Assembly (NCBI GenBank): GCA_902634765.1
Contig: CACPLH010000005.1
Coordinates: forward strand, 10,015 to 74,014
DNA: 64,000 nucleotides
Reading direction: 5' to 3'
Origin: an uncultured Pelagibacteraceae bacterium
Lineage (GTDB): Bacteria; Pseudomonadota; Alphaproteobacteria; Pelagibacterales; AG-422-B15
Part shown: positions 7,416 through 21,673 of the stretch, in pieces
How positions within the stretch are numbered: position 1 is the stretch's first letter
Layout: each line of letters begins with the position of its first letter
Notes under the pieces: model-generated
What the model was told of the DNA's origin: nothing
The model's input: the letters and a program-made list of their open reading frames with translations, nothing else
Databases searched by the model: none
Made by a program: the position numbers and the translations under genes

Positions 7416-8441
7416 TCATTTATCAAAATCTAATTTAAGTGGTGATAATAAAATATTCCCTCTTATGTCTCCGATTAAAACATGAGAGCAATCAGGTAAC
7501 GAAGATATAGCTGAAATCTCTAAACCGGTAGGATTTTGTATCAATATGGGATTTTTATACTCATCTACCTCTGAAAAAAAAACCTTACCATCTCGAAAAC
7601 CTGCAAAAAAAGCATTTTCTCCTGACAAAGGCTCTATGAATGTTACATTTTGGTCACCGCCATTAGTAAGGCAAATTGGTTTACGTTCTTGTGGCCCATT
7701 TTTTCCATCAAAAGGCCAACATATCGACTCTTTTGCACCTGAAGTTATAAGAAAAGGCGTGTCTCCAACCCAAGCAAAACTTTTTATTTTTTCTGAATAG
7801 CCTGACATTGCCATATTAATTTTGTCACGAATACGCCATATATGAAGCTCATTTTCCTGCATCGCCGTGATAAGGTATTTTCCGTCTGGGCTAAAACTCA
7901 CCTTACCATGAGAACCTTTCCATACAAATCTCGAGGGCTTCCATTTTTTATTGCCTAATCGCCATACTGTTGCCCCTCCATAACAAGATATTGCTATTCG
8001 TTTTCCATTTTGATCGATTGTAATTCCACCAACAGTACTATCATGTTCTAGTAATTTTGGATTCTTATCACCATTCGACCAAACATAAGCAGTTCGACCA
8101 GAAGAACAAACAAGATTGTCCTCGAATACAGCTAAACAATCTACCCAACGAGTACCAAAATTAGTTATTTCATTTATTTTACCATCAATAGAAATCTGCA
8201 AAAAACGTCCATCATCTCCACCTGTATAAATATACTTACCATTTGATGACATACATAACACAACACCATTATGTGCTTTTATCACATGCGGCTCCTCACC
8301 ATAACGAAAGAAACGTACTGTTCCATCTCCAAAGCTAACAGCAATTGCATCATGAAGTGGAACTGCTCCTATAACAGGAGCACCAACATCAAACTTTATA
8401 CCTTTTCGCTCAAATTCTGTTTGATTAAATTCAGCACTCAT
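7416..8441 (-). CDS. WD40-repeat beta-propeller protein (COG0523-associated)
   Basis: Repeated H..V...A/S and W-x patterns ([29 protein letters not shown]); 4-bp overlap with the COG0523 gene. Confidence 0.82.
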
Positions 8442-9409
8442 GCTGATTTGCAGCCTTCAAATCCCTCCTGAAGATTCATACTCTCAAGATTTCTTCCAAT
8501 GAATACTACCCTTGAATTACGATCTTTATTTTTGGGCCAAGGTCCCATAGGTGATGCATCCATAAGCATGTGCACACCCTGAAACACATAACGTTCTTCT
8601 TCACCTTTAAAATCAAGAATTCCTTTAGATCTTAAAATATCTTGACCTTTTGTTTGTAAAAGCTCTCCAAACCATGACTCAAATTTTTGCATATCAAGAG
8701 GAATTTCAGAAACAAATGAAACACTGGTAACATCATCGTCATGGTCATGGTCATGATCGGACTCTAAGAAATCAGGCTCTACTTCAAGAACACGATCAAG
8801 ACTAAAGGCATTAAGACCAAGAATCTCTTCAAGAGGAGCTTCGCAACGATTGGTTTTAATTATTCTTGTATAAGGATTGATTTTTCGAATTCGCTCTTCA
8901 ACACCTACAAGTTTACTTTCATCTACTAGATCAATTTTATTTAACAATACAACATCTGCAAATGCAATTTGTTCTTCTGCTTCGTGATGGCTCCCCAACT
9001 GTGAACTCAAATGAACAGCATCAGCAACAGTTACAATTGCATCAAGTTTTGTACGATCAGAAACATCTTGATCGACAAAGAATGTTTGTGCAACTGGAGC
9101 TGGATCAGCGAGTCCAGTAGTTTCAACAATGATTGCATCAAGTTGATCTGCTCGTTTCATAAGACCGCCAAGAATACGTATTAGGTCACCCCGTACAGTA
9201 CAACAGATGCATCCGTTATTCATCTCAAACACTTCTTCGTCAGCGTCAACAACAAGGTCATTATCAATTCCCTGTTCTCCAAATTCATTTACAATAACCG
9301 CGTAACGACGACCATGCTGTTCTGTTAGAATTCGATTTAAAAGTGTTGTTTTACCAGCTCCCAAAAAGCCTGTTAATACCGTGACTGGAACTTGAGAAAT
9401 ATCATTCAT
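8438..9409 (-). CDS. COG0523/CobW-family G3E GTPase, zinc metallochaperone
   Basis: [18 protein letters not shown] and NKID motifs; DHDHDHDD linker; CobW C-terminal domain; upstream Zur box. Confidence 0.93.
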
Positions 9410-9473
9410 AATTTTTACATTTATTATTTTAAAAAAAATAATTTTAGTCTTTTATTGAAAATTTTGCGATATA

Positions 9474-9493
9474 AAATGTTATATTATAACGAT
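9474..9493. promoter_or_regulatory. Zur box upstream of the COG0523-WD40 genes
   Basis: AAATGTTATATTATAACGAT; palindromic core GTTATA-T-TATAAC matches the proteobacterial Zur consensus. Confidence 0.85.
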
Positions 9494-9514
9494 AAAAATT
9501 ATTAATAATTTTTT

Positions 9515-9979
9515 CTAATACTCATAAGGAATAATGTTGTGCGCAACCATTTCATACCCTGCATTAGCTTGATATGTTTCATGGGGGTTCAGAGATATTA
9601 TAGTATCTTGACCGCCTATTGATATCTCTCCCGTAATCCAAATTGGATCCCAAATAAAATCATTTTCCCAAGGCAAATCACTAATGACATATACCAACTG
9701 GTTTGCAGGAGGAGGAGGTACATGGATACAGGCGCCAATATATGGCACTAACATAAATTCTTTAATTTCTCGAGCTTCATAGTGTAATGGAATTAGATAC
9801 CCCGGTATCTTAACTACTTTTCCGTTGAGACTCTTATTAAATTTTACATCGCTAGGACTAAATATCGATGTAAAAGGAATTAAATCACTCCAACCAATTT
9901 CTTTTGAGTCATCAGTCTGCGAACAAGAAGATAATAGAAATAGAATAACTAAAATTGATAGAAATTTATTTGGACTCAT
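9515..9979 (-). CDS. DUF3299 family lipoprotein (ZrgD-like)
   Basis: Lipobox LLSSC; FMLVPYIGACIHVPPPPANQ signature. Confidence 0.85.
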   Translation of the reverse strand: MSPNKFLSILVILFLLSSCSQTDDSKEIGWSDLIPFTSIFSPSDVKFNKSLNGKVVKIPGYLIPLHYEAREIKEFMLVPYIGACIHVPPPPANQLVYVISDLPWENDFIWDPIWITGEISIGGQDTIISLNPHETYQANAGYEMVAHNIIPYEY

Positions 9980-11229
9980 TATATTTTTATTGTCATCCCA
10001 TCATTAATTGAAAACCAATATGCCCTTATAGCTGGTATTAAACTTACAAGCATTGCAGAAATAATAAACAGTATGAAGATTAATAAATCCTTTAAAGACA
10101 ATAATTCAATATTTATTAAAATTCCATAAGTATCATCAATCCAGGGTTGTAATGTATTTAGCAATATATACAGCAAGATACTACTAACCAAAGTACTTAA
10201 AAAAGAAATAATAAATGCTTCTAACATAAGTATTCCAATAACAACATTTGGGGAAGCTCCCATTGCCCTCCAAATTGCCATTTCACGCCTTCTTTCATTT
10301 AAACTAGAAAATATTATTGCAGCCATCCCTATTAATGTAGTAAAAATTACAATAACTGAAATCCCTAATAGAAGATTTTCTACTATACCAATAATTCTCC
10401 AAAGTTCATGAAGTGCAACACCTGGCAAGATTGAAGTCAATGCTTCCTCAGGATATTCGTTGATCCATCTCTGCAACTTAAAAATATTTAATTTTGATTT
10501 AACTCCAATGAAAGCAGCAGTGATATTTTTTGCTGATAGATCCATTTTTCGAATTTCTTCAATGGGAGTTTCTTGACCAGGTATTTTTGCACCACTTGAC
10601 CAATCAACATGAATAGCCTCTATTGCCTCTAAACTCACAATAACTGTGTTATCAACTGGAGTTCCAGTTTTCTCTAATATACCTGATACCTTAAAGGGCT
10701 GATCATCGTGATCAGTAAAAGATTTTATTCCATGTGAGACAATAATTGACTTGCCTATGTTATATTTTAACTTCTCTGCAACTGCAGCTCCTAGAACTAC
10801 ATCATACAAATCATCAAAATAATTTCCTTCACTTATCTTTATTGATTGACCTCCTCTATATTTGTATCTCTTAAAAAAGTCCAAATTTGTTCCCATAACT
10901 CTGAAGCCTTTATGACTATCTCCCAGAGAAATTGGTACAGACCATTCGACTTCATCTTTATTCATAATTTCTTCATAGCTCTCCCAAGTAATATTATTGG
11001 TGGCATTTCCAACCCTAAAAACAGAGTATAATAAAAGTTGAATTGAACTAGTTCTTGACCCTAAAATTAAGTCAGTTTGAGAAATAGTATCTGTAAAACT
11101 CGTATAAGCAGAAGTTCTTAATTTCTCTACACTCAAGTAAAGCATTAATGATAGCGATATCGCAAATACAGTCATGCTGACTGTTAAAAGACGTGCATAT
11201 AATGAAGCTAATGCAAGTTTAAGAAGCAC
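9979..11229 (-). CDS. FtsX/MacB-type ABC permease (ZrgC-like)
   Basis: VPISLGDSHKGFRVMGT and LNERRREMAIWRAMGA motifs; 4-TM topology. Confidence 0.87.
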   Translation of the reverse strand: MLLKLALASLYARLLTVSMTVFAISLSLMLYLSVEKLRTSAYTSFTDTISQTDLILGSRTSSIQLLLYSVFRVGNATNNITWESYEEIMNKDEVEWSVPISLGDSHKGFRVMGTNLDFFKRYKYRGGQSIKISEGNYFDDLYDVVLGAAVAEKLKYNIGKSIIVSHGIKSFTDHDDQPFKVSGILEKTGTPVDNTVIVSLEAIEAIHVDWSSGAKIPGQETPIEEIRKMDLSAKNITAAFIGVKSKLNIFKLQRWINEYPEEALTSILPGVALHELWRIIGIVENLLLGISVIVIFTTLIGMAAIIFSSLNERRREMAIWRAMGASPNVVIGILMLEAFIISFLSTLVSSILLYILLNTLQPWIDDTYGILINIELLSLKDLLIFILFIISAMLVSLIPAIRAYWFSINDGMTIKI

Positions 11230-11935
11230 GACTAATCCCTTCCTTCAGTATATCATTGATATGAATAACTCGATCAAAATGTTTTGAAAGAGACTCATCG
11301 TGTGAAACCATTAACAAAGTTGATTGACTATCAGAAATTTGTGAAAACATTAAATCTATAAATATATTTTGAGCATTAGTGTCTAGAGATGATGTTGGCT
11401 CATCAGCTATAATTAGAGATGGGTTACCAATTAATGCTCGTGCAACTGCAACTCGTTGTTGTTGACCAACACTTAGTTTGCTTGCTTGCATATTTACAAT
11501 TTCATCAGGAAGTCTAAGAGATTTACATAGATTTGAAGCAGTTTCATCTTTATTAATGACATTATTAGCCCTTGTTTTAGAAAAATAGAGAGGTAATAAA
11601 ATATTATCTTTAACCTTAGCGTATGGAAGAAGATTGAATTGCTGAAATATTATTCCAATATTGTCTGATCTATATTGATCTTTTTTGCGAGCTGACAATT
11701 TATTTATTGACTCATCATTAATGTAGATATTTCCAGAAATAGGAGTTAAGAATCCACAAATTAGTGAAAGTAAAGTTGTTTTACCAGATCCACTTTCTCC
11801 TATAAGTAAAACGTTTTCACCTTTACTAATTTTAAGCTCAGGTACAAAAATTTTAAATTCGCTCTTGTTTGCCCAATGAAAGTTGACAGAGTCTATTAGT
11901 ATCTTATTTTCATTCAAATTAGATTTTTCCATCAA
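11219..11935 (-). CDS. ABC ATP-binding protein (ZrgB-like)
   Basis: Walker A GESGSGKTT, LSVGQQQRV, IIADEPT; true start may be a few codons downstream. Confidence 0.9.
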   Translation of the reverse strand: MMEKSNLNENKILIDSVNFHWANKSEFKIFVPELKISKGENVLLIGESGSGKTTLLSLICGFLTPISGNIYINDESINKLSARKKDQYRSDNIGIIFQQFNLLPYAKVKDNILLPLYFSKTRANNVINKDETASNLCKSLRLPDEIVNMQASKLSVGQQQRVAVARALIGNPSLIIADEPTSSLDTNAQNIFIDLMFSQISDSQSTLLMVSHDESLSKHFDRVIHINDILKEGISRAS

Positions 11936-12539
11936 TATTTATAGAAGGTTCTTCTGCTTCAACCTCAAAGCTAACAGATCCTTTACTAGAAATAAACTGA
12001 ACTTCCAACTCCCCAGAATTTGGAAATGTTGAAAAATAGGGAAATTCTACGTTATTGATTGCTTTTATATCACCGCACTCAAACGAATATTTAGCATAAA
12101 ACTCATTATGATTTTCTTCAGCATGCTCATCATGGTCATGTTCGTCATGGTCATCATGTTCGTCATGGTCATCATGTTCGTCATGGTCGTCATGGTCGTC
12201 ATGTTCGTCATGGTCGTCTTCATCTTCTTTAAGAGCTACTTGTTTTCCAGTAAGTTGACAAAGACTATTCTTAGGAAGAGTAAAAATATTCTCATAATTC
12301 TCAAAAGTTTGAAGAGCCATATTTATACTAGCAATATCAGCATCACTTTTAGCAACATATTCAAATCCCACAATATCTGCACCTGGGATCATAAATTCAA
12401 ACTCAATTACAGAACCTTCTGTTGCAATATTGAGCTCACCTACACCATGTTCATGCTTATCTACTTGACGAGTTTCTTCAGCGTAAACTCTTGCTAATGT
12501 AAAATTAAAAATAATTAATATTGATAAAATAATTTTCAT
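11919..12539 (-). CDS. DUF2796/ZrgA-like periplasmic zinc-binding protein
   Basis: Signal peptide; HEHGVGELNIA and DIVGFE motifs; His/Asp-rich loop; two Cys. Confidence 0.85.
   Translation of the reverse strand: MKIILSILIIFNFTLARVYAEETRQVDKHEHGVGELNIATEGSVIEFEFMIPGADIVGFEYVAKSDADIASINMALQTFENYENIFTLPKNSLCQLTGKQVALKEDEDDHDEHDDHDDHDEHDDHDEHDDHDEHDHDEHAEENHNEFYAKYSFECGDIKAINNVEFPYFSTFPNSGELEVQFISSKGSVSFEVEAEEPSINIDGKI
12123..12227 (-). repeat. 9/18-bp periodic coding repeat encoding a (DDH/DEH)n metal-binding tract
   Basis: TCATGGTCRTCATGTTCG units; protein EDEDDHDEHDDHDDHDEHDDHDEHDDHDEHDHDEH. Confidence 0.9.
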
Positions 12540-12567
12540 AGTGATCTCCTTTAAAAAAAATTCTTAT

Positions 12568-12990
12568 TTATGACTCATGAATTTGTTCACAAGATTTACA
12601 AGTTCCAAAGAATTCTAAATTATAACCAGCAAATTGTGCTCCACTTGAGTCTTTAAAACCTGACAAAAATTCCAATAGTTTTGGGTCATTGATTTCTAAA
12701 ACTTCATCACAGGTATTACAAATTGAAAATGCAGTAGTATGAGACGATGTACAATGTTTAGTATTACAAGCAATAAATGAATTTTGACTTTCAATCTTAT
12801 GAATCTTACCTATTCTGATTAGCTTATCCAAGGCTCTATAGACTTGTGGCGGCGCTTTAATACCCTTCTTTTGAACATTTGATAATATAGAATAAGCCTT
12901 AACGGGTTTTTTGTGTTTCTGAATAAAATCTAAAACTATTTTTTGATTTTTCGATAAAACTTTATTTTCATTTTTCATAATTTTGTTCAT
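12568..12990 (-). CDS. zur: Zinc uptake regulator (Fur family)
   Basis: KAPPQVYRALDKL helix-turn-helix; CxxC pairs CNTC and CKSC; directly downstream of znuB. Confidence 0.9.
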   Translation of the reverse strand: MNKIMKNENKVLSKNQKIVLDFIQKHKKPVKAYSILSNVQKKGIKAPPQVYRALDKLIRIGKIHKIESQNSFIACNTKHCTSSHTTAFSICNTCDEVLEINDPKLLEFLSGFKDSSGAQFAGYNLEFFGTCKSCEQIHES

Positions 12991-12991
12991 A

Positions 12992-13783
12992 TTAATATTT
13001 CTTTTGAACTCTAAATAATGACAAGATAAATAATACTAAGGCAACAGTTACTATACTAGGGCCAGAAGCAGTATTTATCTCAAGAGAAGCATATAAACCA
13101 ATAAAGACAGATAACAATCCACCTATAATAGATAGTATTACCATTTGTTTTGGATTATTTGATAAGTTGCGTGCCATGGCTGTTGGAATAATCAATAATC
13201 CAGTGATTAGTAATACTCCAACCATCTTAATTGAGATGGCAATTAGTGCTGCTAATAAAATTGTGAATATAGCATTTACTCTCTCAGGCCTCATACCCTC
13301 AGCTTCAGCAAGTTCAAAATTTACCGTTGAAGCAAATAGAGGTTTCCAAATATACCATAAAACTATTAGTATCAGTCCTCCACCAATCCAAACAGCGAGT
13401 ATGTCGTTCGTATTTACTGACAGTATATCTCCAAATAAAACTCCCATAATATCAAATCTGATAAATGATAAAAAACCTAGTATTACCAACCCAATTGCCA
13501 AAGAAGAATGGGAAATTAATCCAAGTAAAGAATCGCCTGCTAAGTTAGTTGACTTCTGCAACTTAAGTAAGAGTAAAGCCACTAGAGAAGAAACAGCAAA
13601 AATTGTTATAGAAACATTAATATTAAAAGTTATTGAAAGTAAGACGCCTAATAAAGCCGAGTGCGCTAATGTATCACCAAAAAATGATAATCGCCTCCAG
13701 ACAACAAAACATCCCAATGGTCCAGCGACCAACGCAATTCCAATCCCAGCAATTAGCGCTCTTACTAAAAAATCATCTAACAT
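12992..13783 (-). CDS. znuB: Zinc ABC transporter permease
   Basis: GPLGCFVVWRRLSFFGDTLAHSALLG; LFGDIL; VGVLLITGLLIIP. Confidence 0.93.
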   Translation of the reverse strand: MLDDFLVRALIAGIGIALVAGPLGCFVVWRRLSFFGDTLAHSALLGVLLSITFNINVSITIFAVSSLVALLLLKLQKSTNLAGDSLLGLISHSSLAIGLVILGFLSFIRFDIMGVLFGDILSVNTNDILAVWIGGGLILIVLWYIWKPLFASTVNFELAEAEGMRPERVNAIFTILLAALIAISIKMVGVLLITGLLIIPTAMARNLSNNPKQMVILSIIGGLLSVFIGLYASLEINTASGPSIVTVALVLFILSLFRVQKKY

Positions 13784-13785
13784 AT

Positions 13786-14535
13786 TTACTTAACTTCTTT
13801 CATAATATTTCCATCTAAATCATGAATATGGTCATGATTATGCTCATATATTGATAGTAATTGAGAAGATTTTTCGCCAAATAGCTCTTTATAATGATCA
13901 CTCTTAGCTACATCCTTAGGGGTTCCACAGCAGCAAACATGCCCATTTAGACAGACTACATAATCAGTAGCTGACATAACAACATGTAAGTCATGAGAAA
14001 TTAGAAGGATTCCACATTTTAAGGTTTCAGAAATTTTCTTAATCAAATTATATAGTGCAACTTCACCATTAAAATCAACACCTTGAACTGGTTCATCTAG
14101 AACTAAGAGTTCAGGTTTTTTTGCAATAGCCCGTGCTAATAAAACTCTTTGAAACTCGCCACCTGATAAATCTCTTAGATTATTATTTTGTAAATGCTCG
14201 ACACCAGTAAGGCTTAGAGCATATTTTATATCTTCAGTTTTTAGAACTTGCGTTAAAACCATAAAGTCAATTACTCTTAAAGGAAGAGTCCAATCGATGG
14301 ACACTTTTTGAGGCACATATGAGATATTATTAGTGAATCTCTCTACACTTCCTTTTATGTTCTTATGCAAACCCAAAGCTATTTTAGCAGTCGTTGTTTT
14401 TCCTGATCCATTGGGACCAATTAATGTTACGATCTCTCCTTTTTTAATTTCTAAATCAACATCTCGTACAAGCCATTTATTACCCTTAAAAATACCAGCA
14501 TTGGATAATTTTACTAAAAGACCATTTTCACTCAT
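13786..14535 (-). CDS. znuC: Zinc ABC transporter ATPase
   Basis: GPNGSGKTT, LSGGEFQR, LDEPVQGVD, CLNGHVCC and a His-rich tail. Confidence 0.93.
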   Translation of the reverse strand: MSENGLLVKLSNAGIFKGNKWLVRDVDLEIKKGEIVTLIGPNGSGKTTTAKIALGLHKNIKGSVERFTNNISYVPQKVSIDWTLPLRVIDFMVLTQVLKTEDIKYALSLTGVEHLQNNNLRDLSGGEFQRVLLARAIAKKPELLVLDEPVQGVDFNGEVALYNLIKKISETLKCGILLISHDLHVVMSATDYVVCLNGHVCCCGTPKDVAKSDHYKELFGEKSSQLLSIYEHNHDHIHDLDGNIMKEVK

Positions 14536-14558
14536 TAAAAAAACTTGCTAAATAATTT

Positions 14559-14573
14559 TGTTATAATATAACA
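14559..14573. promoter_or_regulatory. Zur box in the divergent znuC/znuA promoter
   Basis: Perfect 7-1-7 palindrome TGTTATA-A-TATAACA. Confidence 0.92.
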
Positions 14574-14606
14574 CTAGGCTAAATATTTAATGAAAGCAAT
14601 AAATCT

Positions 14607-16076
14607 ATGAAGTTCCATCTAAAATTAAGCCTAATAATTTCAACTATATCACTATTATCAATTATGTCTTATGCTAATGCAGAAACAAAAGTTGTAGCTT
14701 CGATTAAACCACTGCATTCATTAGTTAGCTATGTAATGGATGGTGTTGGTACTCCAGATATACTTGTAGATGGAAGCGCTTCGCCTCATACTTTTCAACT
14801 TAAGCCATCACACGCGACTATGCTGCAAGAAGCTGATATCGTTTTTTGGATTGGAGAAGATTTAGAGTCTTTTCTAGAAACTCCTCTCGAATCAATAGCT
14901 GCAAACTCAAGACATGTTACATTAATGGAGTCTAATGAGATTGAATTATTAAAATTTAGAGAAAAAAATATTTTTGGTGGCCATGATGAGCATGATGACC
15001 ATGACGAACATGCTGATGAACACGGTGATGAGCATGATGACCATGACGAGCATGCTGATGAACACGGTGATGAGCATGATGACCATGACGAGCATGCTGA
15101 TGAACACGGTGATGAACATGATGAACACGGAGATGGGCATGGAGATCATGCTTTTGAGTGGGCAGGTGTCTTTGAGTTAGAGGCAGGAACATATAAATGG
15201 TCTTTTGCAAAAGTAGATGGTGACTATGCAGATCCTGCAATGAAAATGGTTATTCTTCAATCTGATGACATTGAAGCGTCTGAAGAAAAAGCTGAGGAAT
15301 TATTGGAGTCTAAAGAATCAGAGTCCAAATCTCATAACGAAATACTAGCTGTAAACGAGAAGGCCTTTATGCTTAATTTTGATGATAATAAAGATATAAC
15401 AATGTTTACAGTTGAAATTAAAGAAAGTGGTAAATTTGCTTTCTTTACAGAACACATGCCTTTTGAGTTTGAGGCCGATGAACACTTCTTAAAAGATCTT
15501 TCAGGTCAAGATATTGAACCAATAGCACAAGCTCCAGACTCTGGACACCACGATCATCATGGACATGCACATGGCGAACACGATATTCACTTTTGGCTTG
15601 ATCCTGAAATTGCAAAAACGATCGTAGGAATTGTTGCACGAGAATTATCTGAAATTGATCCTGCTAATGCATCAACTTATAAATCAAACTCTACAAAAGC
15701 TATGAATGAGATTGATCAACTGATAAGTGATACAAAGAGCAAAATTAATAGCAATGCAAGTTATGTTGTGTTTCATGATGCATATCAATACTTCGAAAAA
15801 AGATTTGGTGTTGAAGTTGTTGGAGCGTTAACAGTAAATCCTGAAGTTTTACCAGGAGCAAAACAGTTATCAGAAATAAGAGAAGTTATAGAGCATGAAA
15901 ACATAAATTGTTTATTTTCTGAGCCTCAATTTAATCCAAGTATTGCAGAAACGATTGCTAAGGATACTGGTGTGAAAGCAGCAATTATAGATCCTCTTGG
16001 AGCTGAATTAAATCCAGGAAAAAATTTATATTTTGATCTTATAGGTAATATTGCTTCTTCATTTGAGAGTTGCTAA
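14607..16076 (+). CDS. znuA: Zinc ABC substrate-binding protein with enlarged His loop and inserted domain
   Basis: VVASIKPLHSL, SPHTFQLKPS, HFWLDP, VFHDAYQYFE and FSEPQF motifs; 489 aa versus about 310-340 aa typical. Confidence 0.92.
   Translation: MKFHLKLSLIISTISLLSIMSYANAETKVVASIKPLHSLVSYVMDGVGTPDILVDGSASPHTFQLKPSHATMLQEADIVFWIGEDLESFLETPLESIAANSRHVTLMESNEIELLKFREKNIFGGHDEHDDHDEHADEHGDEHDDHDEHADEHGDEHDDHDEHADEHGDEHDEHGDGHGDHAFEWAGVFELEAGTYKWSFAKVDGDYADPAMKMVILQSDDIEASEEKAEELLESKESESKSHNEILAVNEKAFMLNFDDNKDITMFTVEIKESGKFAFFTEHMPFEFEADEHFLKDLSGQDIEPIAQAPDSGHHDHHGHAHGEHDIHFWLDPEIAKTIVGIVARELSEIDPANASTYKSNSTKAMNEIDQLISDTKSKINSNASYVVFHDAYQYFEKRFGVEVVGALTVNPEVLPGAKQLSEIREVIEHENINCLFSEPQFNPSIAETIAKDTGVKAAIIDPLGAELNPGKNLYFDLIGNIASSFESC
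14985..15110 (+). repeat. Three near-identical 42-bp tandem coding repeats (DEHDDHDEHADEHG)
   Basis: GATGAGCATGATGACCATGACGARCATGCTGATGAACACGGT three times. Confidence 0.95.
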
Positions 16077-16120
16077 TACGCCTAGTTCATTAGTTTAAAT
16101 AAGAAGTAGAAGTAATTCTG

Positions 16121-16771
16121 ATGAATATTTATCAAAGTAATAAACTTCAAGATCTAAAAAATTTTGATGAGTACTCTGCTCAACTTGGAATTATTGAGCG
16201 GAGTATGCCAGTAGGTGTGGATGCATTCTTTCAAAAACTAATGAGATCACATTTCAAATTCTCTGGTGAAGTCTCCAAAGACGCAGCATTCTTGGATATA
16301 AGAAATATTTTAAATAAAGAATTTTCTCAAGAAATAAAAGCCGAACTTTTATACGATGAATGGCTGGAAGATATGGCAGAAGTTTGTAAAACGTTTTGTG
16401 TATTAGAAAAAATAGAAGCTGTAAGCTTTCACTTGGGTACACAGCGTGCTTGTCGAAGATACCATATAGATAATGTTCCAAAGCGTATGCTTGTTACATA
16501 TGCTGGAAAAGGGACAGAATGGCTACCTGATGAAGCTGCCGATCGTGAGGCTTTCTTAAGTGGAGAGCCAAATGAGAAAATTATTAAAGACCCTTCAGCA
16601 CTTCAATTTATAAATCAGTGGGATGTTGCTGTATTTCGAGGTGGTCCTGAGGGAGTCTTACACAGAACACCTGATGCAGCCTTAAATGGTCCCTCAATAC
16701 TTATGAAACTTGATCATCCTGAATTTTTGAAAAATATAATTCCTGGTATTGAAATATTTGAAGAATATTAA
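16121..16771 (+). CDS. DUF1826 family protein
   Basis: CRRYHIDNVPKRMLVTYAGKGTEWL and GVLHRTP motifs; family commonly found near COG0523/Zur loci. Confidence 0.82.
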   Translation: MNIYQSNKLQDLKNFDEYSAQLGIIERSMPVGVDAFFQKLMRSHFKFSGEVSKDAAFLDIRNILNKEFSQEIKAELLYDEWLEDMAEVCKTFCVLEKIEAVSFHLGTQRACRRYHIDNVPKRMLVTYAGKGTEWLPDEAADREAFLSGEPNEKIIKDPSALQFINQWDVAVFRGGPEGVLHRTPDAALNGPSILMKLDHPEFLKNIIPGIEIFEEY

Positions 16772-18908: not shown

Positions 18909-19748
18909 TTAAGCCCTTTTATCACTTAAAACTGTGATCCGATTCATAATCCGCTGATGAGGCATATAATCACCTATGGCATAGTGCATCGTACAACGAT
19001 TATCCCAAATTACTAATGTGTCAGATGTCCACTGAAACCTTATTTGAAATTCAGGCTTATTCATAAAATTAAATAAATAGGAAAGTAAATTATTAGAGTC
19101 AGTTGTCGTCATTCCAACAATCTGAGATGTAAAGCTGGGATTGATATAAAGAAATTTCTTTTTTGAAACAGGATGAATTTTTACAACAGAATGAACGGCA
19201 TTTCCAAATTCTTCAAAACCTTTGTTTAACTTATTTGCAGATTCAATATCATCCTCTTGCATATAGTTGTTTCGAAAGCTTCCCATATCATGAATAGCCC
19301 TCAATGTTTCAAGATTTTTTTTCATCTCATCTGGGAGTGCATCATATATTTTTGACAATGAACTCCATAATGTATCACCACCAACTGGTGGGATTACTTT
19401 GCTACATAAAACAGTAGCAAAGGGTGGATCATTTTTAAAAGTTAAATCTGTATGCCATTCGTCTGTATCAGGTGGATTGTCTTTATTATTTTCAAGTAAT
19501 ACAATTTCAGGAAATCCTTCTACATGCGGATAAATAGGATGTGGATCTTCAATTGTTCCAAGGCTTTTTGCAATCTCAATATGTTTCTCAGGAGAAATTT
19601 TTTGATTACGAAAAAAAATAACATTGTACTTTATCAAATCATCATAGATTTGATTGAGTTGCTCATTAGATAAATCATTTGAAAGATCTATTCCTGTAAT
19701 TTCGGCTCCGAGTGAAGGCGTTAACTGTTGAGCAGAATAATCATTCAT
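18909..19748 (-). CDS. tauD: TauD/TfdA-family Fe(II)/2-oxoglutarate dioxygenase
   Basis: WHTDLTF (HxD), GGDTLW and WDNRCTMHYA motifs; start set at ATG 19748 (TAATG coupling with the upstream stop). Confidence 0.8.
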   Translation of the reverse strand: MNDYSAQQLTPSLGAEITGIDLSNDLSNEQLNQIYDDLIKYNVIFFRNQKISPEKHIEIAKSLGTIEDPHPIYPHVEGFPEIVLLENNKDNPPDTDEWHTDLTFKNDPPFATVLCSKVIPPVGGDTLWSSLSKIYDALPDEMKKNLETLRAIHDMGSFRNNYMQEDDIESANKLNKGFEEFGNAVHSVVKIHPVSKKKFLYINPSFTSQIVGMTTTDSNNLLSYLFNFMNKPEFQIRFQWTSDTLVIWDNRCTMHYAIGDYMPHQRIMNRITVLSDKRA

Positions 19749-21673
19749 TATTTTATCCATATAGGAGACGACCAAGCCATCTCCGCCATTGTTGAGCTAT
19801 ACGCTTTTGATATTTGTTGTCCTGTCCTCAGACTATCATAAGTGGTCCATCGACATGTTGGGTTTTGAATGACTCGAGCATAATAGAATGCATTTTGATC
19901 AGGACTATAGTCTTCATCAGTCCATAAGACTTGTAGCTCATCTGCTCCTCGATCTTGATCAATAGTACACGTTTTTAAATTAACTTTTATGTTTAATGAT
20001 TTACATCGCTTAGAATTATCATTTATTTCCCTGTTTTCACTACAGATAACATCCATAACTTCTTCCTTCACCTTTCCATTCTCCATCCAGCCTTTAATTA
20101 TCTGTATCTTATCTAGAGGAGCATCAATTGGATCTTTCTTGGCGCTGATAAAAAATGATGGTGCTTTATCTTGACTATGTTCAATTGTGCTTCCCATCGG
20201 TCTTCCATTTTCATAGGCATCGTTGATTTGCTCAGTCGATGATAGTAAGCTTTCACTATAATTAAAGCCTCCAAAAAACCTTAATTCAATTCGAGTGCCG
20301 CTTGTTGCATACACCTCTTTATTTTCCATTGCCTCAAAAAGATCATTACGGGTATTTTCTCTAGCCCAAATTGCGGCAAGTCCACCGGGATTATTTATAT
20401 ATTGTGGAATATGTGTATTTTCATTGATTCTGACCATTGCAGGAGCCACAACATTACTTACCCCCCTGTAATCCCACTCTTCTGTATCTCCAGGATTTGA
20501 ATTATGAGTATCGGAGCTACCAATCATCCCCAAATCCAATGGATTAAAACCTAACTCCTGTTCTAATTCCATGCCTCGCTTTAAAGCATCTCTTACCATT
20601 GAAGTTGGCTGAATACATAATGTATCGCCCTCTTTTTCACATTTTGGATAAATTTGCTCTACGTTGCATTCTTCATCCGTGCTTCCAAAAAAAGTACTAC
20701 ACTCAGAGTTTCCTTTAATCTGAAACATTTCAACAATTGGTTCATTCTTATCTCTTATAGCCCAATCATCTTCAGTATAATTATCTCCATCAATAGTTTG
20801 GTTTGCAAAAGCGACACCCCATGATCTATTACTATTGTGAGGTATTGTAATAAACTCACATGGATAGTTACAACTCGATAGTAATTTCTTCCACAAATCT
20901 ATAGCAGTATGTGCATCAAAAAGTGAAAATGCTTTTTCAGGTACTGTATTATTTTTAAAAATAACATTTCGATGATTATATCCACCATCAGGTAAGGTAG
21001 GTGAATATTCATAAGCAATAAATGTTGTAAACTTACCAGGATCATTATGTCTTTCAGCTGCATTGATAATTTTATTCCATGTAGATTTAATAAATCGTTC
21101 TTCTTTCTCTTTATCACCAATTGCCTCTGACATAATACTTACAGGCGGTCGAGCAACTGATGTTTCGCGAAGTTCCATAAAATATTTAAAGCTCGGTGAT
21201 TCCAGTCTGTCACAGGTATATTGTTGTTCATCAGAAATTTCTGGATCGGCACAAGCTTCATGTAAACCAAAAGTTTCAGCATGATCTGTAATGGCAGCAA
21301 AATCTAGAGGTCTTGAAATTTGCATTGTTTCTCCGTACATATTTAGCAATGGTTTACCTCTAGCAAACGCATATGACTCGTCTGGATCGAAACGAGTATT
21401 AAAAATATAGGCATCAAAAGAAAAACTGGAGTGAACATGTAGGTCTCCAAAATAAACATTCTTTAGTTCATTTTTTTCTTTAAATCTATTTTCTTGAAAT
21501 TCCCATTGCAGAAAGGCATCTTCATTCTGTTGTGCTGCTATCGCTTTATACTTTTCAATATCTTCTTTAGTTAATAAAGGGGCATTTAAGTATGATTGCA
21601 GATAAAAATATCCACCAAGTAAAATTGCAATAAAAGTGAGCAATCCTATAATGATCAAATTCTTTTTACTCAT
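19748..21673 (-). CDS. DUF3604 family (PHP-like metal-dependent hydrolase), N-terminally anchored
   Basis: YFGDLHVHSSFSFDA, LDFAAITDHAE, IPHNSN, GSSDTHN, FYYARVIQNPTCRW and AWSSPIW motifs. Confidence 0.87.
   Translation of the reverse strand: MSKKNLIIIGLLTFIAILLGGYFYLQSYLNAPLLTKEDIEKYKAIAAQQNEDAFLQWEFQENRFKEKNELKNVYFGDLHVHSSFSFDAYIFNTRFDPDESYAFARGKPLLNMYGETMQISRPLDFAAITDHAETFGLHEACADPEISDEQQYTCDRLESPSFKYFMELRETSVARPPVSIMSEAIGDKEKEERFIKSTWNKIINAAERHNDPGKFTTFIAYEYSPTLPDGGYNHRNVIFKNNTVPEKAFSLFDAHTAIDLWKKLLSSCNYPCEFITIPHNSNRSWGVAFANQTIDGDNYTEDDWAIRDKNEPIVEMFQIKGNSECSTFFGSTDEECNVEQIYPKCEKEGDTLCIQPTSMVRDALKRGMELEQELGFNPLDLGMIGSSDTHNSNPGDTEEWDYRGVSNVVAPAMVRINENTHIPQYINNPGGLAAIWARENTRNDLFEAMENKEVYATSGTRIELRFFGGFNYSESLLSSTEQINDAYENGRPMGSTIEHSQDKAPSFFISAKKDPIDAPLDKIQIIKGWMENGKVKEEVMDVICSENREINDNSKRCKSLNIKVNLKTCTIDQDRGADELQVLWTDEDYSPDQNAFYYARVIQNPTCRWTTYDSLRTGQQISKAYSSTMAEMAWSSPIWIK

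Follow-up and report, generated by a model that had tools for sequence, protein, structure and literature searches.

An apparently new domain family in the His-rich loop of a Pelagibacteraceae ZnuA and its proposed role in metal capture

Zinc importers of the ZnuA type that carry an accessory domain are a known kind of uptake system. AdcA of streptococci combines a ZnuA-like protein with a ZinT-like second domain, which is thought to feed the primary site. ZinT (YodA) is a free periplasmic zinc chaperone which works with ZnuA via its His-rich loop, and in the ZIP transporters the ectodomain of mammalian ZIP4 is mostly helical. In the surface ocean, zinc and cobalt occur at picomolar levels, and to our knowledge the means by which SAR11 and Prochlorococcus acquire them are largely unknown. 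Here we describe the znuA gene in a 64,000-nucleotide stretch of DNA (the window) from an uncultured Pelagibacteraceae bacterium (assembly GCA_902634765.1, contig CACPLH010000005.1, positions 10,015 to 74,014). Its product has a folded module of about 130 residues within the His-rich loop, which an earlier note on this DNA, made from the sequence alone, had singled out. The system is a ZnuA-type importer with an accessory domain, and it appears to be built on a new domain family. The module has moved between unrelated ZnuA scaffolds, and it may serve in metal capture.

The window ZnuA matches Pfam PF01297 (ZnuA) with 204.9 bits against a cut-off of 29 (E-value 2.1e-60), in two stretches. The score of 262.1 bits (E-value 6.6e-78) with the NCBIfam ZnuA equivalog NF007091 is below the cut-off of 268 bits; this 6-bit shortfall is probably explained by the loop of about 190 residues, which breaks the match into two stretches. 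E. coli ZnuA (PDB 2ogw; E-value 2.3e-55) covers only residues 23-138 and 319-489 of the window protein; therefore, about 180 extra residues lie at the position of the His-loop. His61 (SPHTF), His328 (HFWLDP) and His390 (VFHDAY) match the EH, H.W and FHDAY motifs of E. coli ZnuA. We take these three residues to be the primary-site zinc ligands. The loop begins with a tract of 57 residues that contains 17 His, 19 Asp and 11 Glu. A 42-nucleotide tandem repeat with a 97% match between its 3.4 copies (14984-15124) codes for the HDEHADEHGDEHDD units of this tract. The second tract, HHDHHGHAHGEHDI, has 7 His among its 14 residues and is followed by HFWLDP. The His tract is length-polymorphic, with a number of HDEHADEHGDEHDD repeats that varies among same-genus ZnuAs. 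Two further SAR11 loci have matches to the window repeat 2.4-3 kb upstream of znuA (75-87% nucleotide identity; about 963-1043 in L001 and about 945-1095 in L040, minus strand), presumably where another gene of the zinc island codes for a His-rich region.

The DNA from 15150 to 15545 translates in frame to 132 residues (AFEWAG...APDSG), residues 182-313 of the protein. The earlier note had read this stretch as an ordered segment between two His tracts, outside the ZnuA fold and poorly described. All of this agrees with what was found: the translation is exact, HFWLDP comes after the second tract, E. coli ZnuA skips the segment, and there is no match to it, from ZinT or any other family, in Pfam, NCBIfam or the PDB sequences. 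AlphaFold2 modelling of the segment with a 37-row alignment results in a mean predicted local distance difference test (pLDDT) score of 94.4 and a predicted template-modelling score of 0.88. The model shows a beta-sandwich with some nine strands, together with two helices, a long one and a short one. On this model, the segment is a discrete globular domain which is separate from the ZnuA fold. A single-sequence AlphaFold2 run on the whole 489-residue protein gave a pLDDT of 37 and was uninformative, and a complex prediction with two module copies and two zinc ions gave no answer (score 0.00, mark 0.42), which speaks neither for nor against dimerisation.

The module appears to belong to a new domain family. 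The segment alone has no match at E≤1 among the families of Pfam-A (2025 copy) and NCBIfam 20.0, and a profile built from 37 module sequences had no hit at E≤10 in a set of 177,635 distinct PDB sequences. Foldseek comparison of the model with the PDB gave nothing at E≤1e-3, with template-modelling scores of at most 0.34. An exhaustive VIA-align comparison with 48,161 chains had a best Z of 4.7 and none of 5 or more, which by the calibration of the tool means a common arrangement at most. The top weak neighbours (Z of at most 4.7) are generic sandwiches, namely carbohydrate-binding modules (CBM32, CBM35), GOLD and ephrin-receptor domains; no ZinT-type chain is present among the 50 VIA-align matches listed, all of which are weak. 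Protein Atlas neighbours are clusters of 'hypothetical protein' with no common Pfam family, and a few members labelled Myxococcota or Haptophyta are leads only. No description of the insert was found in the full-text literature searched. The carriers are currently annotated merely as "zinc ABC transporter substrate-binding protein" (ABC, ATP-binding cassette); therefore, the module is invisible in databases. ZCRP-B of diatoms was considered and rejected; it is a NikA-like protein (Kellogg et al. 2022, PMC9010474) and differs from this module.

The module family is far beyond chance. A HMMER scan of 1.84 billion representatives gave 463 clusters at E≤1e-3, of which 194 reach 1e-10 and 24 reach 1e-30; 150 of the 463 were listed and scanned for partner domains with Pfam (E≤1e-4). 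The match spans query residues 1 to about 130 throughout these 150 representatives, so the boundaries are constant. One copy per protein is present in 120 and two copies in 22 of the 142 listed representatives with a long match. The most frequent partners are Zip (34 of 150), where the module is N-terminal and follows the signal peptide, and ZnuA (32 of 150), where it is internal. CbiM, Hint, HMBD and Meth_synt_2 were each found once, the last in a fragment. The other 80 have no further Pfam domain; many of these are fragments, and among the others are secreted proteins that carry a single hydrophobic segment at the C-terminus. As far as seen, the family is restricted to divalent-metal uptake proteins. 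The earlier note had placed similar motifs on ZIP transporters of marine algae and in some COG0523 proteins. The first part stands, with one of the 34 ZIP carriers coming from the transcriptome of the eukaryote Chlorarachnion reptans, and the second is not supported, since the cobW domain of COG0523 proteins occurs in none of the 150 listed out of the 463.

Several single architectures were also observed. The 366-residue P0031 has the module in a loop between membrane segments of a CbiM-like protein, with His tracts on either side. P0102 (357 residues) has a signal peptide, the module, an Asp/His tract and then the Hint autoprocessing domain. EF-hands precede the module and ZnuA in P0072 (571 residues), and P0151 (201 residues) has an HMBD and the module. 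A Cys-rich segment (SCAC ... IDCT ... QAHHDYC-like) is located after or before the module in many stand-alone forms that are presumably eukaryotic (columns about 330-480 of alignment A1; P0274). These forms also have a hydrophobic tail at the C-terminus, which suggests that they are surface-anchored.

Conservation was computed over 134 full copies and the window copy (135 rows). The values are 0.99 for E3, W4 and Y26, 0.87 for D28, 0.94 for M31, 0.98 for H102 and E106, 1.0 for F107, 0.96 for E108, 0.94 for H112, 0.88 for D121 and 0.91 for E123; G6, F8, W17 and P104 are also near-invariant. The resulting family signature, E3-W4-x-G6, Y26-x-D28, M31, H102-x-P104-x-E106-F107-E108 and H112, is complete in the window copy, and the family is provisionally named the FEWAG ... 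EH-P-EFE ... H domain. In protein numbering the conserved residues are E184, W185, Y207, D209, M212, H283, P285, E287, F288, E289 and H293. The window copy holds three His in all, two of which are the conserved ones. Among the 134 copies, 82 have two Cys and 36 have none, and the named prokaryotic loci have none. In 95 of the 134 copies, at least one flank has three or more His within 30 residues; the window module, in its periplasmic ZnuA loop, has a His tract on each side.

When one genome was scanned for each prokaryotic species, 338 stretches were found to code for close relatives. The best 80 of these were kept, with taxa assigned by record title. They include 52 from Prochlorococcus or Synechococcaceae, 15 from single-cell genomes labelled "uncultured Alphaproteobacteria" and 6 from Pelagibacteraceae. 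Halothiobacillaceae, Magnetovibrio, Roseibium, Rhodospirillales, a gammaproteobacterial metagenome-assembled genome (MAG), a SAR202 MAG and a Nitrosopumilus MAG contribute one each. The SAR202 contig (L037) encodes a ZnuA with a SAR11-like scaffold that is 77-82% identical to that of the window, and it is probably mis-binned. The Nitrosopumilus protein (L068) has its own scaffold type and an N-terminal membrane anchor and is truncated at the contig end; its archaeal origin is given by the bin label, and MAG labels may be wrong. ZnuAs with two copies and the label Desulfobacterales were also found. The closest relative in the scan is from a Pelagibacteraceae single-cell genome, with 86/81/82% identity for N-lobe, insert and C-lobe. 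The genome of the window itself (1.2 Mb, 78% complete) has one module copy. Viral contigs had 6 pattern matches, none of which codes for a relative, and there is no phage carrier in the close-match scan. The expectation that the module is shared across domains of life is borne out at the level of labels, since the sequences are labelled Bacteria, Archaea (one MAG) and Eukaryota.

The module has moved between unrelated ZnuA scaffolds and has been cleanly gained or lost, as the earlier note had proposed in calling it mobile and grafted. The evidence is that congeners with 91-95% identical scaffolds are without it and that the inserts are 68-78% identical, for all pairs, among four scaffold types which share only 18-30% identity with each other. 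The four types are SAR11/E. coli-like, Prochlorococcus-type, Roseibium/Magnetovibrio-type and that of the Nitrosopumilus MAG. With BLASTP, the N-lobe of the window protein has no match in the Prochlorococcus proteins, and the C-lobes are only 19-25% identical. In nucleotide comparisons, the window znuA resembles the non-SAR11 loci only within 15051-15618, which is the module with the adjoining His-tract codons; the one exception is a weak match in the His-tract repeat (L012, 14982-15049). The point of insertion in ZnuA is its His-rich loop. These shared flanks suggest that the His-tract codon repeats (simple CAY-GAY) may serve as a recombination landing pad. A quick tree of the inserts, in which 49 of 87 inner branches are open and the backbone is unresolved, places all prokaryotic inserts in one tight group and has the two Prochlorococcus copies arising by tandem duplication. 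A recent sweep was considered as the source of the similarity and rejected, with a third-codon-position identity at identical residues of 38-68% between lineages, which gives no hint that the transfers were very recent.

The module is also present in environmental data. One contig of the seawater metagenome run X1 covers the module and both junctions with 2 differences. Low-depth contigs of the same run join about 15040-15082 to about 15555-15559, skipping some 472-518 bases, and thus have the insert-less form; these joints may come from close relatives. Three RNA libraries, from three studies, hold contigs that extend across the module and its two junctions with 0-2 differences and leave the rest of the gene uncovered. 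These contigs are weakly suggestive of transcription in the sea, with which they are compatible; an RNA library can hold DNA.

We consider it rather likely that the module binds Zn2+, and perhaps Co2+, and acts as a tethered station that captures the metal and hands it on to the ZnuA primary site. Metal binding is suggested by the conserved His and Glu residues, the His-rich flanks, the fusion partners and the Zur-box context. In the proposed mechanism, the module, a cassette placed within the His-rich loop in a SAR11-type ZnuA, would hold a divalent metal (Zn2+, possibly Co2+) by His283, Glu287, Glu289 and His293, probably together with Glu184 and Asp209. With its flanking His/Asp/Glu tracts it would form a tethered antenna that captures scarce periplasmic metal. 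The metal would be handed to the three-His primary site of ZnuA and then delivered to ZnuBC. In eukaryotic plankton, where the module is found on ZIP transporters and on surface proteins with a single membrane pass, it would have the same task at the cell surface. More tentatively, the module may be an undescribed domain for metal capture that has travelled as a cassette through the most abundant plankton of oligotrophic waters. Its carriers would be SAR11-type bacteria, Prochlorococcus, Desulfobacterales, the Nitrosopumilus MAG and further Alpha- and Gammaproteobacteria, with older relatives on algal ZIP channels and surface proteins; it would always be in or next to His-rich tracts, whose codon repeats might be the landing pad.

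Several observations weigh against the proposed role in capture and hand-off. In the family of the window, 45 of 59 genomes have ZnuA and only 8 of 59 have the module, although many of the genomes are incomplete, and the module is present in 5 of 400 genomes sampled from the order. Three same-genus ZnuAs of 340-367 residues, with scaffolds 91-95% identical to that of the window, are without exactly the module; they retain an unbroken H/D/E tract with a variable repeat number. The module is therefore dispensable for ZnuA as such, and most related ZnuAs do without it. Within SAR11 the identity of the insert is 73-82% vs 81-86% for the scaffold. The insert has thus changed about as far as the scaffold, or further, which suggests a moderate constraint on most of the module surface; for the same reason, slow evolution alone does not account for the similarity across phyla. 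The weak fold neighbours (Z of at most 4.7) are ligand- or protein-binding sandwiches and not metal binders. The number of conserved His is only two, and the bacterial copies are without Cys.

Such sandwich neighbours would fit a module that is a receptor for organically bound metal, which docks or strips a zincophore-like or natural seawater complex of zinc or cobalt. Most dissolved zinc and cobalt in surface seawater is organically complexed, CBM32, CBM35 and GOLD (Z 3.8-4.7) are ligand-binding sandwiches, and the conserved aromatics W4, F8, W17, Y26 and F107 would suit a ligand pocket. However, these fold matches are below the level that the tool calls meaningful, none of the genes scanned around znuA is for metallophore biosynthesis or a TonB-type receptor, and the conserved polar residues are of the kind that typically binds metal directly; a receptor of this kind is unlikely. 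The module might also be a protein docking surface (for ZrgA, a porin or the surface layer, for example) or a metal-sensing plug that throttles ZnuA at rising zinc. Wei and co-workers reportedly once proposed (2007) a regulatory role for the His-rich loop of Synechocystis ZnuA, and the module is located in this loop. Tandem copies are present in 22 of the 142 representatives with a long match, and a docking partner in common could also explain why ZIP, CbiM-like and single-pass proteins all have the module. We nevertheless regard docking or regulation as improbable, because the module occurs in Bacteria, in an archaeal MAG and in eukaryotes, whose envelopes differ greatly, so that a shared protein partner is unlikely. 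Profile comparison also gave no relation between the module and the ZrgA (probability 0.1%) and DUF3299 proteins of the window, although this is mute on binding.

The choice of metal is a separate matter. Almost all of the listed representatives with a second Pfam domain have ZnuA or ZIP (66 of 70), and the window gene lies behind a Zur-box-like site in an island with zur, znuBC, ZrgA and COG0523 genes. Both points make it quite unlikely that the physiological substrate of the module is not zinc but Co2+, Cd2+, Fe2+, Mn2+, Ni2+ or Cu. A non-zinc substrate would be in line with the fusions to a CbiM-like protein (a Co/Ni family) and to HMBD, and with Met31, conserved at 0.94. If the Prochlorococcus Zn/Mn-type binding protein cluster CK_1600 is the insert-bearing protein, it would also be in line with the finding that this cluster is up under Fe stress and inhibited by Co (review PMC8786288).

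The neighbouring genes are listed in Table 1. The region 7416-16771 is predicted, from its gene content and sites, to be a compact zinc-starvation island under the control of Zur, in a streamlined genome of 1.2 Mb. The TGTTATAATATAACA palindrome presumably corresponds to the Zur-box consensus, which it resembles in sequence; at one mismatch or less there are 3 matches in the window vs 0.04 expected. The set of ZrgA, ABC ATPase, permease and DUF3299 genes resembles, as we take it, the ZrgABCDE zinc system of Vibrio. The genes from ZrgA to DUF3299 may be co-transcribed from the znuC promoter. A COG0523-WD40 pair is located next to zur/znuABC in picocyanobacteria (Barnett et al. 2012, PMC3323870), and the pairing in the window is the same association. 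The genes for a TauD-family dioxygenase and a DUF3604 protein beside sucCD (18909-21673, minus strand) are unrelated to the module as far as seen.

Table 1. Features of znuA and of the surrounding zinc island, in window coordinates.
Feature	Position	Strand	Basis or remark
WD40 gene	7416-8441	-	after COG0523 gene
COG0523/CobW gene	8438-9409	-	cobW and CobW_C cover whole protein
Second Zur-box-like palindrome	9477-9491		1 mismatch; upstream of COG0523/CobW gene
DUF3299 gene	9515-9979	-	Pfam
FtsX/MacB-type permease	9979-11229	-	Pfam
ABC ATPase	11219-11935	-	Pfam
ZrgA-family gene	11919-12539	-	Pfam; directly downstream of zur
Fur-family regulator, presumably zur	12568-12990	-	Pfam FUR
znuB	12992-13783	-	Pfam ABC-3
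znuC	13786-14535	-	Pfam ABC_tran; divergent from znuA
Perfect 15-bp palindrome TGTTATAATATAACA, Zur-box-like	14559..14573	.	exact match; divergent znuC/znuA intergenic region
znuA, open reading frame of 489 residues	14607..16076	+	periplasmic zinc-binding protein with enlarged His-loop; Pfam PF01297, E. coli ZnuA matches
Predicted Sec signal peptide, residues 1-25 (...SYANA|ETK)	14607..14681	+	read from sequence; cleavage site inferred
ZnuA N-lobe, residues 26-124, His61 in SPHTF	14682..14978	+	aligned to E. coli ZnuA residues 22-121
First His/Asp/Glu tract, residues 125-181	14979..15149	+	holds 42-nucleotide x 3.4 tandem repeat at 14984-15124
Inserted beta-sandwich module of about 130 residues, residues 182-313	15150..15545	+	profile family, AlphaFold2 model, conservation
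Second His tract, residues 314-327, HHDHHGHAHGEHDI	15546..15587	+	translation
ZnuA C-lobe, residues 328-489 and stop; His328 (HFWLDP), His390 (VFHDAY)	15588..16076	+	aligned to E. coli ZnuA residues 134-306
DUF1826 gene	16121..16771	+	directly downstream of znuA; PF08856, 1.3e-26

The presence and absence of the module in near-identical natural alleles is a natural experiment on the accessory domains of ZnuA-type importers, and its entry into one and the same loop in unrelated scaffolds shows lateral transfer at the level of a domain with unusual clarity. The module could mark metal stress or niche in metagenomes. If the spread as a cassette is true, alleles of ZnuA which are 95% identical and differ in the module would represent an adaptation at the ecotype level that sets the minimum of zinc or cobalt.

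Several described systems are similar to the window ZnuA in one respect and different in another. AdcA (PDB 7jj9) is likewise a cluster A-I protein with an extra extracytoplasmic domain and His-rich segments; however, its extra domain is a C-terminal fusion, whereas the window module is inside the His-rich loop and matches neither ZinT in Pfam nor any PDB sequence (E≤10), including the ZinT-like domain of AdcA. ZinT/YodA is an accessory periplasmic element of the Zur regulon, as the module is predicted to be, and both would raise zinc capture by ZnuABC. ZinT is a separate protein of another family, while the module is covalently tethered, occurs on ZIP channels too and is unrelated by sequence. 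The ordinary His-rich loops of E. coli and Synechocystis ZnuA have the same position in the fold, and the window protein keeps His/Asp/Glu tracts on both sides; but those loops are short and disordered, and same-genus relatives have the tract only, where the window has a folded domain of 130 residues between two tracts. In the ZIP carriers (34 of the 150 listed representatives) the module, like an ectodomain, is N-terminal to the ZIP membrane domain and after the signal peptide; its predicted beta-sandwich differs from the mostly helical ectodomain of ZIP4, and no solved chain matches it by sequence. ZrgA/AztD-type proteins are periplasmic helpers encoded beside zinc ABC importers, and a ZrgA-family gene is present in the window island; these are separate proteins, whereas the module is a domain within the binding protein and has no profile relation to ZrgA. 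By analogy of function, then, the module would resemble the accessory zinc modules (ZinT, the second domain of AdcA, His-rich loops and ZIP ectodomains), while its sequence places it in none of these groups.

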